From Treponemataceae bacterium (GTDB lineage: Bacteria; Spirochaetota; Spirochaetia; Treponematales; Rectinemataceae), in the NCBI GenBank assembly GCA_963678065.2, contig CAXXVZ010000005.1, positions 320,001 to 384,000 of the forward strand: a stretch of DNA of 64,000 nt, given 5' to 3'. The position numbers were made by a program, and so were the translations under genes. Each line of letters starts with the position of its first letter. Position 1 is the stretch's first letter. Below the pieces are notes generated by a model. The model searched no databases. It was not told where the DNA came from and saw only the letters and a program-made list of their open reading frames with translations. Of this stretch, positions 1 to 5,759 are shown one piece after another.

Positions 1-330
1 CGGCACGCCCCAGGGCACGAGGAGGATCGAATACAGGATTCTGAACCCTCGCCGGGCCTCGAAGAGGAGGGCCGCGAGGGAGTAGCCGAGCACGACGGAG
101 AGGAGCGTGGAGGCGACCGACCAGGCGAGGGTGATTCCGGCCGACATGGCGAAGGCCCTGTCCCCGAGGATGTAGGAATAGTTGTCGAAGCCGGCGAAGC
201 TGCGCTCGCCGAAGAAATCGTGGAAGAAGGAATCCTTGAGCGCCGAAAAAAACGGGAGGGCGCCCACGACCGCGAAGAGGAGGGCGAGGGGAACGAGCCC
301 CCAGGCCGACCTGTTTTTTCTGCGCGTCAC
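1..330 (-). CDS. Carbohydrate (CUT1/MalF-type) ABC permease, N-terminal part, runs off window edge
   Basis: Hand translation from GTG at 330: MTRRKNRSAWGLVPLALLFAVVGALPFFSALKDSFFHDFFGERSFAGFDNYSYILGDRAF...LLVPWGVP. The FAGFDNY and LVPWGVP motifs are typical of MalF/UgpA. Not in the ORF track. Confidence 0.85.
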   Translation of the reverse strand, partial: MTRRKNRSAWGLVPLALLFAVVGALPFFSALKDSFFHDFFGERSFAGFDNYSYILGDRAFAMSAGITLAWSVASTLLSVVLGYSLAALLFEARRGFRILYSILLVPWGVP

Positions 331-407
331 GGACAGCTTCTCCCGTTTCCCCTCCGACACTCCCGGTCCGGCCCTCGTGTCTGCCGTCGGGCCGGAGCAG
401 GAGTCGT

Positions 408-1931
408 TCAGAACTTCGCCTTGACGGACTTCAGCATCTTCACATTCTTGATGCCGGCGGGCACGAGGGCGGCGTTCTTGTCCCAGACCAGGGCGAGAGG
501 GAACTCGTCCTCGCCGAGATTCGCGCCGTTCTTGTACATGGCGATGATGAGATCGTCGTTGTGGTCCATCTCTTTCGCGTTCAGCGTGACGGTGAATCCG
601 TCCGCGGCGACGAAATCGACGGGATAGCCGGCGCGCGCGAGGGCGCTCTCGTAGGCGGGAATCGACTTGTCCTGCTTGTGCGGCGCGTTTTTCGGATCGT
701 CGACATAGCCGAGGATGAGCCAGGCCGGGAAGCCCGTGTAGCTCGCGCTCACTCCTTTGCGCTCGAAGGTCACGGTCTTGCCGTGGCAGCTCACGCAGCT
801 CTGGATCGTGGAGCGGTCGAGTTCGTGGCTCATCTTCCCCGAGAGGGAAATCCTGAAATCCTTGAAGTCCTTCTGCTTGACGACGATTTTCTTGACCATG
901 CGCACGGAGAGGTGGCCGTCGATATTCGGATTGCCCGCTCCGACCTTGATCGTGCGCACGTAGCCGGGATCCTTGGGCAGGGCCTCGCCGTCCATCATAA
1001 AGGCGAGAAGCCAGGTTCCGTCCGCCTCGTCCATGACGAGGGAGCCGGGGTAGGTCATCTCGTAGCCGTCCATGGCGACGAAGGTCACGGAGTCCTTGTC
1101 CGAGAGCTTCGTGAAGCGCTCGACGAGTGCGCGCAGCTTGACGCCGCCGTACACATTCGTGTATTTCGTGCCGGCGCTCGTCGTGTAGCTGCCCTTCGCC
1201 TCCATGTAGAGCTCGGAGGAGCGCAGGTCGTCGAGGGAATACGAGGCCTTCGTCCCGTTTATGTCGAGGTCGACGGAGAAGGCTTCGGTCGCGGTCTTCG
1301 CGGGATCGGGGGCGAGGCTCGTCTCGATGGCGACGAGGTCGCGGACCCAGAGATTCTTGGGCGAGTCACCGACGGTCTGGGGAGCGCCCCATTTCCCGTT
1401 TTCCTCGGTGGCGAGGATGAGGGCGTCGGGGGCGAGATCCTTCGTCGAGAAGGTGGCCGTGTAGCCGTCCTTCGAGACGAGGGTTACATCGTAGCCGGCC
1501 TTCCATTTAGCCTCGTCGAAGGAGTAGGGGGCGGCCGAATCGGCTCCGTCGACCATCGCGATGATCCTGGACAGGGGGACGCCGCGGTACTCGAACTTCA
1601 CCCCTTTTTTCTCGACCTGCCGCTTCACGGCCCCTGCGTTGAAAAGCTTCTCGTAATACGAGGTCACGAGGCTGTCGGCCCGGAGGCCGAGAAGCTTGAT
1701 CGTCCAGCCCTCCGTTTCTCCGGACGCGGCGGAGACCGCGTCGGGCGTCGCCTGGGCGAAGGCCGCGGCCGGCACGAGGGCGAGCATGACGAGGGCCGCC
1801 AGGGCCGCCGCCGCTAGGCGAGCCGTCAGGCGAGTCGCGGGGCGCGCGGCACGGCTCAGGGAGCCGGGAACGGCCCGGCGCGGGGTGCTGCCCGACGAGC
1901 GGAGCGTTTTTTCCATCCTGATTCTTTCCAT
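408..1931 (-). CDS. Secreted protein with three tandem molybdopterin-dependent oxidoreductase (sulfite-oxidase-like) domains and a CxxCH motif
   Basis: AAGGAGG SD before ATG 1931; signal peptide ending AAFA|QA. Three repeats of YxGxxL...V(S/A)xDG(Y/F)...L(I/L)A...VxxLxxI. CVSCH at 783-797. Confidence 0.75.
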   Translation of the reverse strand: MERIRMEKTLRSSGSTPRRAVPGSLSRAARPATRLTARLAAAALAALVMLALVPAAAFAQATPDAVSAASGETEGWTIKLLGLRADSLVTSYYEKLFNAGAVKRQVEKKGVKFEYRGVPLSRIIAMVDGADSAAPYSFDEAKWKAGYDVTLVSKDGYTATFSTKDLAPDALILATEENGKWGAPQTVGDSPKNLWVRDLVAIETSLAPDPAKTATEAFSVDLDINGTKASYSLDDLRSSELYMEAKGSYTTSAGTKYTNVYGGVKLRALVERFTKLSDKDSVTFVAMDGYEMTYPGSLVMDEADGTWLLAFMMDGEALPKDPGYVRTIKVGAGNPNIDGHLSVRMVKKIVVKQKDFKDFRISLSGKMSHELDRSTIQSCVSCHGKTVTFERKGVSASYTGFPAWLILGYVDDPKNAPHKQDKSIPAYESALARAGYPVDFVAADGFTVTLNAKEMDHNDDLIIAMYKNGANLGEDEFPLALVWDKNAALVPAGIKNVKMLKSVKAKF

Positions 1932-2037
1932 CGCTATTCCTCCTTGAAAATGTTGACCGACTTTTTCGCACACCGTGCCTGTGCGCTTCACGATTTACGC
2001 GCTCGCACCCGCGCGCGGGCTCTGTCCCTGCAGCCCC

Positions 2038-3648
2038 TTATTTCAGATTCTCCGCGATGAGCTTCGCGGCGGTTTTCTGCGTCGTCGCGACATCCATCTG
2101 CCCGGTGAGCAGAAAGCGCAAGAGCTTCCACATGACATTCTTGAAGGCGGCGTAGGATTCCGCGGGCGGAACGACAAGTCCCGTCTCGTAGCTGCGCATG
2201 AGTTGGGCGTAGTACTTGTTGTCGGTGCGGGCGGTTTCCATGGCCATGCGGCTCGCGGGCAGCTTGGAGAGCTTCGAGGTGAACGAGGCCTGAACGCCGG
2301 GCGATGTCATGTACTGGACGAGGCGGCGCGCGAGGACAGGCTTCGTCGTCCTGCGGCCGATGGCCAGTCCCTTGAAATCGAGGAGAGGCGCGAGAGCTTT
2401 GCCCGTCGCCGAAAGCACGGGATAGGGCGCGACACCGAAATCGATGCCGATCTTCGTGAACTCGGAAATGCTGTAGGAGCCCGACAGGATGAAGGCCGTC
2501 TTGCCCGAGGCAAACCAGGATATCATCGCGTCGCGCTCCGCCGGCTCGAGGAGGCCCCGCTTGTCGAGGTCGAGAAGGTAGGCGAGCGCCCTGGCCGTCG
2601 GCTCGTCGTCGACGGTGATCGATCCGTCAGGGTTCAGGATGGAGGGTTTGCCGAATCCCGCCATGAAGGGCAGGAGCCAGTAGGCCGAATACAGGTTCCA
2701 GGCCATGGGCGCCTTGAGGCCGGATCCGTCCGCCGCGCTGCTTGCGGCGATCTTCGTCGCCATGCGCTCCAGATCATCCGTCGTCCAGTCGTCGCGGACA
2801 GTCCCGCCTGTCAGTTTTTTGTTGTAGAACACGAGCTGGGCATCGAAATAGAAGGGTACGGCCCAGAATCTGCCCTCGTGGCGGAAAGCCTCGAAACCCT
2901 TGGGCACGAGGTCGTCGGTCCTGAGGTACTCCACCGACTGGATGACGCGCGCGGCGGCGAGGGCCGGGGCGTAGTCGGACTGGATCATGACGACGTCGGG
3001 GAGCGTGCCGCCGGCCCGCGCGACGGCGAGCAGCTTGGTCTGCGTGTTGGGAACATCCGTCACCCGCACGCTCAGCCCGTGCGAGGACGCAAAGCGGGCC
3101 ACTTCTTCCTTCAGCTCGGGCACGCCCTCCCAGGAAACCCATGCCTCGAGACTCTTCTCCGACAGGAGTTCGCCCGAGAGATCGACCCGCTCGACGGCCC
3201 GGAATCTCTCTGTCCCGACGACGAGGTCCCAGCCTCCCTTCGCCTCTGCGAGGTGGACCTCGAAAAGCCGCTCACCAAGGTCGTCGGATTCCCAGGCTTT
3301 TTTCCCCGTCGCGGAAGAGGCCTCGAGTCTCCAGACTTCGGCCATGAGGGGGCATATCTCGCCGAGCGCGACAGTTTTCTCGGGCGCAGGGGAAAGAAGG
3401 GAGGAGGCTGCGGCCGCACGCTGCTCGGGTTGCGCTGTGCGTTGCTCGGGTTGCGCCGCGTCCTGTCCCCGCGGCACGGCGAGGACGAGAGGACGGGCCA
3501 GGGATTTCAACTCCGCCGCGGTGACCGAGCGGATGATCTTTCCGCCCAGCCCGATGTCGAGGGCGCGAACGCCCGTCGGCAGAAAAAACAGGAAAAAGAT
3601 GATGCAGGCCTGAGCGCAGGCCGAGAGGAAGAGACTTCGCTCCCGCAC
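2038..3648 (-). CDS. Extracellular solute-binding protein (MalE/family 1) with extra N-terminal domain
   Basis: C-terminal ~370 aa has PDVV, WAVPFYFD...FYNK, GxTAFILSG and FGVAPYP motifs of CUT1 SBPs. GTG start after AAGGAGG. Confidence 0.85.
   Translation of the reverse strand: MRERSLFLSACAQACIIFFLFFLPTGVRALDIGLGGKIIRSVTAAELKSLARPLVLAVPRGQDAAQPEQRTAQPEQRAAAASSLLSPAPEKTVALGEICPLMAEVWRLEASSATGKKAWESDDLGERLFEVHLAEAKGGWDLVVGTERFRAVERVDLSGELLSEKSLEAWVSWEGVPELKEEVARFASSHGLSVRVTDVPNTQTKLLAVARAGGTLPDVVMIQSDYAPALAAARVIQSVEYLRTDDLVPKGFEAFRHEGRFWAVPFYFDAQLVFYNKKLTGGTVRDDWTTDDLERMATKIAASSAADGSGLKAPMAWNLYSAYWLLPFMAGFGKPSILNPDGSITVDDEPTARALAYLLDLDKRGLLEPAERDAMISWFASGKTAFILSGSYSISEFTKIGIDFGVAPYPVLSATGKALAPLLDFKGLAIGRRTTKPVLARRLVQYMTSPGVQASFTSKLSKLPASRMAMETARTDNKYYAQLMRSYETGLVVPPAESYAAFKNVMWKLLRFLLTGQMDVATTQKTAAKLIAENLK
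3420..3461. repeat. Imperfect 21-bp tandem duplication encoding AQPEQRT/AQPEQRA
   Basis: gctgctcgggttgcgc at 3420 and gttgctcgggttgcgc at 3441. Confidence 0.8.
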
Positions 3649-3650
3649 GG

Positions 3651-3761
3651 GATCCTCCTTCTCAAGGGTGGAAGGCGCGGAGGTTTCCCCCGGCACCCGA
3701 TGGCTTCTCGTCCGTGGGCCGCCCTTTCAGGCGGCTGTTAGGTCCGGAAGCTCGAAGGATC
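3651..3761 (-). ncRNA. Moco/Wco (molybdenum/tungsten cofactor) riboswitch-like leader, P3-less type
   Basis: Minus-strand RNA GAUCCUUCGAGCUUCCGGACCUAACAGCCGCCUGAAAGGGCGGCCCACGGACGAGAAGCCAUCGGGUGCCGGGGGAAACCUCCGCGCCUUCCACCCUUGAGAAGGAGGAUC. P1 GAUCCUUC/GGAGGAUC covers the SD; P2 carries a CCUAAC..CACGG tetraloop-receptor-like element; P4 ends in a GAAA loop. Confidence 0.75.
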
Positions 3762-3842
3762 GTATCGCTATTTTTATATCCGCAATCGCCTCGGGACCGC
3801 AAGTCCGCTCCCGCCTCACAGGCTGTCTGCGCTCTCCGGAAC

Positions 3843-5759
3843 TCAGTCCGCGGAATTCCCGATTTCTTCCTCGTCGCGCGGGGCGAAGTCTTCCAGCCAG
3901 CTTTTGGTCGCGGCTTCCGTCATGGGGCGGGCGTAGAGATAGCCCTGAATGTAGCGGGCCCCGTTCTCCAGGGCCCGTGACAGGATGCGCTTATCGCTCA
4001 CATGCTCCGCGACGATTTCGAGCCCCGACACTGAGCAGAAGGCCGCCATACCCCTGAGCAGGACAACGGCATCCTCGCGCTCCGCGGTCTCTTTCATGAT
4101 GGAGCCCGCGATCTTCACGGCGTCGAAGCCTGCCCCCAGAAGACTGGCATAGTTGGAGTACCCCGACCCGAAATCGTCGAGGTACACGAGACCTCCCGCC
4201 TCGTGCACAGAACGGATGAAGGTATCGACGCGCGAATGATCGCGGAATGTGTCATGCTCTGTGAGTTCCACGATGAGGCGCCCGGGCTTTCCCGCAGGTT
4301 TTTCCGGACGACCCGGGAGTTCTGTTCCTTCCGCTGTTCCGGAGAGCTCTCTGCAGCAGCGGCAGATCCGCTCGACGTATACGGGACGCTCGAGATCCTC
4401 GTACGTTATGTTGAAGCTCACCGGAAGCCCCGACTCCGAAGCCATAGCCCGGGCGCGGTCCAGGATGAACTCGGATATCCGCGGGCCGAGACCGAACTGC
4501 CGCGCCGCCGCAAGATATGGCTCCACCGATTCGAGGCCACTGGCCGTCCGCACGCGGGTCAGGGCCTCGATGAATCCCACACGGCTGGTGCGGGCATCCC
4601 AGACAGGCTGGAAAACCGCCTCGAAACCTCCCGAAGCCAAGGCTCTGAAAAGAACGGCCGCCCTGAGGGCGAGTTCCCCTCCCCCGTTGCCTTCGACCGG
4701 AGAATCGGAGAAAAACCACTTCCTTCCCGCGAAAAGACAATCCTCGAGGATGGAATAGGCCCCATCGAGGGCGAGGACCGCGTCCCCGCCCCGGCTGCGG
4801 AAGGCAGCGACGCAGGGGCAGAAGCGTGCCGGAGAGGATTCGAGGACACACTCGGTCTCGAAATGCTCCACGAGATTCCCGAGCAGCTCTCCGGCATCGG
4901 AGGAAGCGGGAAGCACAAAGACGAAATCCATATCCGAAATCCTGTACGGACCGCGCATCCCCCCGACACGGATACACTCTTTCAAAAGCCCGGAAACCCT
5001 GCGCGCCGCCTTTCCCGGCTCCATCGACAGCGCGATCTCCAGATCCCGGAGTGTCGCAAAGTGCATCAGGCAGAGTACATCCCCCGCGCCGATTTCGCCC
5101 CGCAGGAAGGCCGCCTGGTTCGGCAGCCCCGTCGTCTGGTCGATGTAGTGCCGGTCCAGGATGAAGCGGATCGACCTACCCTGCCGCCTTTCGTTCGCCT
5201 CCGCGATCTCGACCTGGAAAAGGATGGCTACCATCGCCATGCAGTAGGTCACGAGCGGAAATTCCATGTTCGCCCGGCCTATCCAGCCCGAATGACGTGC
5301 GAACCACAGAGACGTCACAAAAAGCGCGAGGCTCCCGCTCGCCCCGCGTCCCCAGCGCGAACCTCCGAGCAGGTAGGTGAAGGGCACGAAGCAGAAGAAA
5401 ATGACAATGTGGACGTTGCGCGAGCTTGGAAGGAAAAGCCCCGCAAAAATGCCTGCGAGGACAAAGGCGAGCACGAGGGATTGGGCCAGGACTGTCAGCC
5501 CTATCTTCCTGACAGTGAAGAAGATGGCAAAAATGGCGAGGAGGGCCGCCGCATAGCTCGCTGTGGCAGAAAAATCACCTTTTATACAGTCCGTGATGAA
5601 AAACGAGATCGGGAAAAGACTCGATACCGAGAGAGAGACGAGGGCCACTCTGAGAGAATCGCTTTTGTTGGACTCACGGATGCGTCCGAAAGCCGCCTCC
5701 GTGAGGAAATCGTGCTCGGGAATAGCCGCTTCCAGGTTTTCGGAAGAGTCTTTTTGCAT
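3843..5759 (-). CDS. Membrane-bound EAL c-di-GMP phosphodiesterase with degenerate GGDEF domain
   Basis: N-terminal TM helices; DQTTGLPN start of a GGDEF domain whose motif is degenerate (RISDMDF); EALTR, VELTE, DDFGSGYS, AEHV, IQGY. Confidence 0.88.
   Translation of the reverse strand: MQKDSSENLEAAIPEHDFLTEAAFGRIRESNKSDSLRVALVSLSVSSLFPISFFITDCIKGDFSATASYAAALLAIFAIFFTVRKIGLTVLAQSLVLAFVLAGIFAGLFLPSSRNVHIVIFFCFVPFTYLLGGSRWGRGASGSLALFVTSLWFARHSGWIGRANMEFPLVTYCMAMVAILFQVEIAEANERRQGRSIRFILDRHYIDQTTGLPNQAAFLRGEIGAGDVLCLMHFATLRDLEIALSMEPGKAARRVSGLLKECIRVGGMRGPYRISDMDFVFVLPASSDAGELLGNLVEHFETECVLESSPARFCPCVAAFRSRGGDAVLALDGAYSILEDCLFAGRKWFFSDSPVEGNGGGELALRAAVLFRALASGGFEAVFQPVWDARTSRVGFIEALTRVRTASGLESVEPYLAAARQFGLGPRISEFILDRARAMASESGLPVSFNITYEDLERPVYVERICRCCRELSGTAEGTELPGRPEKPAGKPGRLIVELTEHDTFRDHSRVDTFIRSVHEAGGLVYLDDFGSGYSNYASLLGAGFDAVKIAGSIMKETAEREDAVVLLRGMAAFCSVSGLEIVAEHVSDKRILSRALENGARYIQGYLYARPMTEAATKSWLEDFAPRDEEEIGNSAD

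Follow-up and report, generated by a model that had tools for sequence, protein, structure and literature searches.

A riboswitch-led ABC-type operon of spirochaetes as a candidate salvage system for the tungsten cofactor

A three-gene ATP-binding cassette (ABC)-type operon on the minus strand of a 64,000-nt stretch of a Treponemataceae genome (CAXXVZ010000005.1, 320,001-384,000) probably salvages ready-made, metal-loaded tungstopterin, and possibly molybdopterin too, being shut off when the cofactor is plentiful. This stretch is referred to as the window, and features are given in window positions unless a contig is named. The operon runs from an RNA leader through a substrate-binding protein (SBP) and a protein with three molybdopterin-type domains (the triple protein) to a permease. 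The initial annotation had described such a minus-strand run, consisting of a leader, a CUT1 SBP with an extra domain, a secreted triple protein and a permease, and all of these parts were confirmed. Its proposal that a sugar-type importer takes up the intact molybdenum or tungsten cofactor (Moco or Wco) or a precursor is supported, and is narrowed to the metal-loaded cofactor by gene content and the distribution of the family of aldehyde ferredoxin oxidoreductases (AOR).

The leader is the sole Rfam match across the window. The initial annotation had proposed a search with the Moco covariance model at 3640-3780, and RF01055 is indeed found at 3639-3770(-), scoring 46.0 bits where the gathering threshold is 36 (E-value (E) 8.7e-8), covering the full model and reaching 9 bases into the SBP gene. 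The P3 stem columns are empty in this alignment, as is characteristic of the P3-less (Tuco/Wco) class, and P3 is absent from all homologous RNA alignments shown. According to the accessible part of Regulski et al. (PMC2408646), P3-less RNAs are tied to tungsten-cofactor metabolism in 17 of 19 organisms, ligand binding by this class is itself an inference, the Moco RNA of E. coli holds the ribosome-binding site (RBS) within P1, and the genes downstream of Moco RNAs comprise synthesis genes, metal importers and cofactor enzymes. The leader studied here is judged from its sequence to be a true Moco-family RNA and, by the P3 rule, one of the tungsten-cofactor type. Its 3' P1 strand is the Shine-Dalgarno sequence of the SBP gene, immediately ahead of the GTG at 3648; binding of the ligand is therefore predicted to prevent translation. 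A terminator scan found no intrinsic terminator after the aptamer, which is consistent with translational control, and a promoter scan found no convincing sigma-70 site. Among 36 homologues, two-sided changes occur in 13 of 18 pairs; the covariation score was reached by 0 of 500 shuffles, and the support exceeds both shuffled and slid controls. The folding energy by itself is unremarkable (z -1.18, not significant). Public RNA runs gave scattered short contigs from relatives, one spanning the RNA and the SBP start, and no evidence on expression.

Two more Moco RNAs were observed. A second P3-less one (64 bits; G000:C5:316656-316779(+), L002) lies 3.2 kb outside the window and faces the importer operon, directly preceding a pyrroline-5-carboxylate (P5C) dehydrogenase gene (TIGR01236, above cut-off). 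We know of no link between P5C dehydrogenase and the W/Mo cofactor. The third (G000:C3:1074233-1074390(-), L003) has an extended stem where P3 would be and stands before two genes, one ferredoxin-like and one of the AOR family. The latter matches PRK09849/PRK09898, which we take to be of the E. coli YdhV type, a Mo enzyme; a stem at the P3 position before a presumed Mo-type enzyme agrees with the P3 rule.

Homologous operons keep both leader and gene company, as the initial annotation implied. A scan of species-representative genomes confirmed 82 relatives, of which the best 80 were kept, giving 75 loci (labelled as 69 spirochaetes, 4 Thermotogota and 1 Bacteroidales). The order SBP-triple protein-permease is found in 66 of the 75, the other nine being cut by contig ends, and beyond these three genes there are no conserved neighbours except scattered ATPases. 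With a model built from 36 leaders, the RNA is found before the SBP gene at 60 of 75 loci; 12 of the misses are without upstream DNA and three are real, so that the RNA leads 60 of the 63 loci having upstream DNA. As 35 of the loci had contributed to this model, Rfam alone was run separately on 17 loci and detected the RNA at 16. The three loci without it (L075, L079, L080) have a common TTGGCA-N7-TGCA box upstream of the SBP gene, resembling a sigma-54 promoter, and the operons at L075 and L079 converge on a cluster of Mo-hydroxylase, amidohydrolase and carboxyltransferase genes. In G204 (L061:1383-7413) the gene lying divergently to the operon encodes an AOR; it is accompanied by NuoE/F/G-like subunits and a ThiF gene, and this may be a tungsten oxidoreductase of the electron-bifurcating kind. 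The reading as an ordinary sugar importer was rejected, as none of the genes conserved around the 75 loci is a sugar enzyme or regulator.

Gene content was surveyed in 221 evenly sampled Spirochaetia genomes of at least 90% completeness, mostly metagenome-assembled genomes (MAGs) (90-100%). The triple protein is carried by 35 of them, 97 have an AOR match, 83 moaC and 123 a Mo-hydroxylase match; AOR-family genes are present in 34 of the 35 carriers. Counting strong AOR matches (E<1e-60) leaves 75 genomes and drops 22 weak matches, 16 from one family. In this set, moaC is absent from 16 of 34 carriers compared with 5 of 41 non-carriers. These 16 moaC-less carriers span 10 families; 15 of them are also without moeA, and all are without tupA, modA and wtpA above cut-off. 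With both moeA and the metal importers missing from carriers that lack the pathway, the pattern suits a cofactor already loaded with metal more than a precursor pterin. All five genes (moaC, moeA, tupA, modA, wtpA) are missing from 15 of 34 carriers and 2 of 41 non-carriers, the latter being about what is expected from incomplete assembly. None of moaC, moeA, tupA or modA is found in 17 of the 75 genomes, and the operon is present in 15 of these 17 compared with 19 of the remaining 58. In the 56 genomes that have a Mo-hydroxylase match and no moaC, it is present in 16 of the 20 with a strong AOR and in none of the 36 without. The operon tracks tungsten-type (AOR) enzymes, as the P3-less RNA predicts. 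In a carrier set of 50 of the 75 locus genomes, of unknown completeness, AOR is found in 50/50, moaC in 17 and moeA in 17.

Two genomes without the pathway (G064 and G112) yet keep the cofactor-sensing RNA before the operon. The pattern of a salvage importer (dependent enzymes, no synthesis, the coenzyme's own riboswitch) is thus seen within the limits set by MAGs, linked genes, kinship and a post-hoc cut-off. In G046, a single 3.3 Mb contig, the operon occurs with two AOR and seven Mo-hydroxylase matches, and moaA, moaC, moeA, modA and wtpA were not found. The G046 operon has no RNA leader and is convergent with a cluster of Mo-hydroxylase genes, so the Mo cofactor may be the cargo in some lineages. 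The genome of the window has nine AOR-family matches, moaA, moaC, moeA, mogA, a MOSC protein and TupABC-like genes, these last six clustered on contig C4, and ModA on C3; a MoaD/ThiS-like protein lies beside an AOR, MoaE was not found with the crude pattern tried, and a cytochrome c assembly gene is present. The idea in the initial annotation that moaA and moaC might be lacking is therefore not borne out. Since synthesis genes and importers are both present, the operon would be a supplement to synthesis in this genome and the sole source in many relatives.

The structure model of the triple protein (predicted local distance difference test (pLDDT) 85.6) matches sulfite oxidases and PruR. In profile comparisons its three repeats match one another (83-99%) as well as the profile built from 18 PF00174 proteins that bear the Cys (94-98%). 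Domain 2 aligns with sulfite oxidase 3hbg at Z 15.8 (root-mean-square deviation 2.7 Å over 138 residues) and with PruR 7kp2 at Z 15.3; searched by sequence against the PDB, the whole protein has no significant match and domain 2 alone finds PruR 7kom at E 0.009. The position of the metal-ligating Cys is taken in domain 2 by Thr251 (Thr in 68 and Asn in 5 of 73 homologues), while in domains 1 and 3 it aligns to a shortened Lys-Gly turn, their hairpins being short as in PruR. Domain 2 keeps the full-length hairpin, D288-G-Y290, an invariant R326 and G339-H340-x-S342. D288-G-Y290 is aligned to the L-N-D-Y motif of 7kom and matches the pterin-stacking N102/Y104 of PruR, and D-G-Y/F is present in all three domains. 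The Arg326 position is Arg in sulfite oxidases and Trp in PruR, and the G-H-x-S-V of domain 2 corresponds to the enzymes' G-A-R-S-V-K; these residues presumably serve to hold the cofactor phosphate. A simple pattern test for the twin-arginine translocation (Tat) signal matched 0 of 120 homologues, and a loose lipobox pattern is found in 76 of 120. Cofactor-loaded periplasmic enzymes travel by Tat, and the triple protein therefore most likely encounters its ligand outside the cell. As explained in the accessible part of PMC11194511, PruR is a secreted, Cys-less form with a truncated hairpin that binds pterins through Asn102, Tyr104 and Trp160.

A Cys-His pair in domain 3 is conserved in 66 of 73 homologues, outside the canonical site. 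A heme c protein was considered for this domain and rejected, as 35 of 73 homologues have Gly in place of the first Cys of CxxCH, and two of the five genomes tested are without the assembly gene. Thermotogota-type homologues (L070 / P0122, P0127) have a fourth, N-terminal repeat and about 630 aa.

The SBP model (pLDDT 93.6) has the MalE fold, with Z 34.7 to T. maritima MalE2 at 23% identity, and the nearest structures bind maltodextrins. Against the NCBIfam MalE model it scores 71.1 bits, below the cut-off of 291, and in the alignment to T. maritima MalE the sugar-cleft motifs are replaced. The cleft has the invariant residues W170, E174, Y267, D269, W317, N318, S321, E371, D424, K426, K462, K503 and W507. 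At E 1e-5 the SBP has no NCBIfam match to ModA, TupA or WtpA, and the TupA-like protein of the same genome does match. Its extra domain is less conserved than the core (mean consensus 0.30 vs 0.57). The initial annotation had spoken of molybdopterin-fold proteins in the plural, and such a fold is shown for the triple protein only: for the extra domain, hhalign against pterin-fold profiles gave 19% or less, matches to the MalE part took up the fold searches, and a pterin fold was not shown by profile, Atlas or structure comparison. The sole likeness found is a strand/helix order resembling that of the triple protein domains. Within the extra domain there is also an insertion of low complexity at 3360-3460(-), which contains a short AAQPEQR-like tandem repeat and is absent from the homologues shown.

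The permease has 610 aa and ends at G000:C5:318528, 1.5 kb past the window. What had been annotated as a MalF-type permease does contain a MalF-like half; in full, it has two BPD_transp_1 domains and two EAA loops and represents fused MalF and MalG halves. The gene after it is on the opposite strand, so the operon has no ATPase gene. Four MalK-like genes were found elsewhere in the genome by pattern search, and at L012 a divergent MalK gene adjoins the operon. The features of the operon are collected in Table 1. Upstream, a membrane-anchored EAL-domain gene (3843-5759(-)) ends 70 bases from the RNA; this neighbourhood is not conserved at homologous loci.

Table 1. Features of the operon in window positions
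Feature	Position	Strand	Basis
Moco/Wco riboswitch aptamer (RF01055), P3-less type	3639..3770	-	Rfam covariance match, covariation
SBP gene, 536 aa, GTG start at 3648 directly after the RNA	2038-3648	-	SBP_bac_8 E 7.9e-25
SBP signal peptide, residues ~1-26	3571..3648	-	Sequence; N-terminal helix 2-22 in structure model
SBP extra N-terminal domain, residues ~27-163	3160..3570	-	Weakly conserved; no profile match, no Atlas match
SBP MalE-fold (CUT1-type) binding domain, conserved remodelled cleft	2038..3159	-	Profile and structure comparison
Triple protein gene, 507 aa counted from an ATG with a good RBS	408-1931	-	PF00174 E 1.4e-15
Triple protein export signal, no twin-arginine consensus	1758..1931	-	Pattern test on homologues
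Triple protein domain 1, degenerate sulfite-oxidase/PruR fold, D155-G-Y157 kept, no Cys	1314..1712	-	Alignments, profiles
Triple protein domain 2, most intact cofactor-type site	873..1286	-	Structure and profile comparison
Triple protein domain 3, degenerate fold, Cys382-His383 pair and invariant Pro-His-x-Gln insertion	408..863	-	Alignments, profiles
Fused MalF-MalG permease, 5' part, last operon gene; start 360 (or 330)	1..360	-	Gene continues past the window

Taken together, a route for the cofactor can be proposed. The triple protein would be exported unfolded by Sec, and can for that reason take up a ligand only outside the cytoplasm, where domain 2 would bind the phosphorylated pyranopterin, shielding the labile cofactor and making no catalytic use of its metal. 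The cofactor would then be handed to the MalE-fold SBP, whose cleft appears rebuilt for an aromatic, anionic ligand, and be imported through the fused MalF-MalG permease, which a shared ATPase of the MalK type, with its gene elsewhere, would power. Inside, it would mature AOR-family enzymes, and any surplus would fold the RNA, hide the RBS and switch the operon off. We infer all of these steps, from capture and hand-over to transport and regulation.

The family of the triple protein extends further. A profile search retrieved 531 representatives of distant kin; many of them have between two and ten repeats, and some have S-layer anchors. P0123, P0142, P0164, P0183, P0236 and P0243 are surface proteins of 1,200-2,900 aa with 5-10 Cys-less PF00174-like repeats, some of them with SLH anchors and beta-propellers. 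For one distant group, 80 of 445 metagenome loci were examined (L105-L184). Cys-less PF00174 repeat lipoproteins lie there in operons with WtpA/WtpB-like genes, e.g. at L183:4001-13207, and other neighbours are TupA-like genes (one fused to a PF00174-like domain) and ECF ATPases, at several loci, and an ArsR-HTH/PBP regulator; an unannotated 240-aa protein is also among the operon partners. The repeat-protein family ties to tungsten supply in general.

Several observations weigh against uptake of the intact cofactor. As stated in the accessible part of PMC7849362, the free cofactor is unstable. Uptake also offers no explanation for how a bis-pterin form would be assembled in cells without the pathway. 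The synthesis genes and importers listed above rule out the genome of the window as a cofactor auxotroph, and moaC is present in 18 of the 34 AOR-positive carriers. Across all 97 AOR genomes there is no enrichment (16 of 39 moaC-less vs 18 of 58 genomes, p 0.39), the E<1e-60 cut-off having been chosen post hoc, after the data had been seen. The p-values of 0.0016 and 6e-5 overstate the association, because of kinship between the genomes and because moa and tup genes frequently lie in one cluster. Two strong-AOR genomes without the pathway are also without the operon, as are 36 moaC-less Mo-hydroxylase genomes, which suggest another uptake route or cofactor form. In the distant group, a WtpA-like gene directly follows the repeat protein at 60 of 80 loci, the other 20 ending within 320 bases, and only 6 of 80 carry the RNA; the WtpA-like proteins scored above the TIGR03730 cut-off in both cases tested (one with 284 bits vs 242.75). 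The moaC-less, operon-less Mo-hydroxylase genomes include G080, G104 and family f15 (G062, G093, G116 and others); in f15 a search for the PF00174 class gave 0 of 17, so its route is not this one.

The presence of WtpA and TupA beside distant relatives keeps metal recovery a live rival, in which W or Mo itself is imported (as tungstate, as thio- or poly-species, or stripped from the cofactor) by a fourth type of system in addition to Mod, Tup and Wtp. Metal importers are among the known targets of Moco RNAs, the distant Cys-less repeat proteins are co-located with WtpA, WtpB-like and TupA-like genes, the SBP cleft has invariant Lys residues, and the operon could replace the tupA, modA and wtpA that all 16 moaC-less carriers are without. 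However, metal is useless to cells without pterin synthesis and insertion, and 15 of these 16 are without moeA as well as moaC, for which reason metal recovery is weighed lower for the spirochaete operon. Where synthesis genes exist, the operon does not replace TupA either (tupA is found in 16 of 18 moaC-positive carriers and 29 of 36 moaC-positive non-carriers), and the SBP resembles MalE, has a size that suits a large ligand and is unmatched by the ModA, TupA and WtpA models. Metal recovery is thus considered unlikely.

Still less probable is a metal-free cargo, i.e. cyclic pyranopterin monophosphate (cPMP), metal-free molybdopterin (MPT) or a simple pterin as in PruR. cPMP is the stable intermediate, the hairpins of domains 1 and 3 are short and PruR-like, and simple pterins are, according to the accessible part of PMC11194511, the ligands of PruR, whose fold is degenerate in the same way; a precursor would nevertheless need MoeA and a metal importer, neither of which is seen in 15 carriers, and domain 2 retains the long hairpin and the Arg that PruR has lost. 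Equally improbable, in our view, is a role of the triple protein as a W/Mo enzyme outside the cytoplasm, having a ligand other than Cys (or a heme c partner), with the ABC genes importing its substrate or product, possibly a sugar derivative. Its annotation as 'molybdopterin-dependent oxidoreductase', the occurrence of Moco RNAs before cofactor-using enzymes, the CxxCH in domain 3 of 35 of 73 homologues together with the cytochrome c assembly gene of this genome, and the maltodextrin-binding structures closest to the SBP would fit such an enzyme. On the other hand, a loaded enzyme would have no export route without a Tat signal, given that such enzymes use Tat, the Cys position is Thr or Asn, and the first Cys of CxxCH is Gly in as many homologues. 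Moreover, the MalE cleft motifs are replaced (71 of 291 bits with the MalE model), sugar genes are missing from the conserved neighbourhood of the 75 loci, and an OFF switch responding to surplus cofactor fits supply genes.

Moco has long been regarded as made and used cell-autonomously. In the literature found, uptake is described for nematodes only: it was shown genetically in C. elegans, with the transporter unknown (PMC7849362, accessible part). No bacterial Moco/Wco importer was described in the literature found, a search that left subscription papers mostly out of reach and supplements uncovered, nor in the accessible parts of PMC10102598, PMC11477304, PMC13119186 and PMC13259868, the last being a 2026 review in which the passage of pterins across the bacterial membrane is called unknown. 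A survey of about 5,900 genomes (PMC6147048) counted 305 bacteria with molybdoenzymes and no complete pathway; the explanations offered in its accessible part are unsequenced genes, pseudogenes, new synthesis parts and metal-free forms, cofactor import not being among them. We lean, if only slightly, towards the view that this operon is the first bacterial importer of an intact metal-pterin, that many free-living anaerobic spirochaetes are tungsten-cofactor auxotrophs fed by neighbours, that a surface protein was recycled from the sulfite-oxidase fold and its module reused in the transporters of other lineages, and that Wco/Moco is a shared vitamin, explaining part of the 'orphan molybdoprotein' genomes. 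If true, the cofactor would join the list of vitamins traded in anoxic communities, and the system would offer a protein with the potential to keep a labile cofactor stable, along with a means to feed tungsten enzymes in hosts unable to make the cofactor. With three proteins and one RNA named, import is directly testable.

By analogy, the operon would work like B12 salvage but belongs to no described family, since it does not show what defines sulfite-oxidase enzymes, PruR, MalE or ModA/TupA/WtpA. With the Tuco class of Moco RNAs it shares a score above the gathering threshold, the absence of P3, an RBS inside P1 and a host with AOR and TupA; a CUT1 operon downstream is not among the genes listed in the accessible part of PMC2408646. 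PruR (7kp2, 7kom, 7kou, 7rkb) is similarly a Sec-exported, Cys-less sulfite-oxidase (SUOX) fold with a pterin-stacking Tyr motif. In contrast to the single-domain PruR, which has Pro-Trp at the Cys position, a truncated hairpin and the signalling protein DcpA as partner in an operon with dcpA, the triple protein has three tandem domains, no Pro-Trp motif, a long hairpin and Arg in domain 2, and an importer as partner. The sulfite oxidase enzymes (SorA, SUOX, MsrP/YedY) share the fold (SUOX/PF00174) and several cofactor-site motifs of domain 2, whereas here the ligating Cys, the twin-arginine (Tat) signal and the dimerisation domain are missing, the repeat is triple, and the operon encodes no partner for electron transfer. 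As in the CUT1 maltodextrin importers (MalEFG-K), a MalE-fold SBP is combined with MalF- and MalG-like membrane halves with EAA loops and probably a shared MalK; the differences are about 22% identity, a replaced cleft, an extra N-terminal domain, a fused permease, no sugar genes and a cofactor riboswitch. ModABC, TupABC and WtpABC are likewise linked to W/Mo, can be under the same RNA and adjoin distant relatives of the capture protein, but the SBP matches none of their models, and separate TupABC and ModA are encoded elsewhere in the genome. Salvage importers are kept in genomes that use and do not make the coenzyme (PMC5317091 gives an example in its accessible part). In the importers of B12 and thiamine pyrophosphate (TPP), a coenzyme-sensing RNA likewise stands before the importer (a cobalamin riboswitch with BtuFCD/BtuB, a TPP riboswitch with thiamine transporters), while the operon described here differs in its cofactor, its CUT1 scaffold, its fused permease, the lack of an ATPase gene and a capture protein derived from an enzyme fold. 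Accessory surface capture proteins exist for B12 as well.

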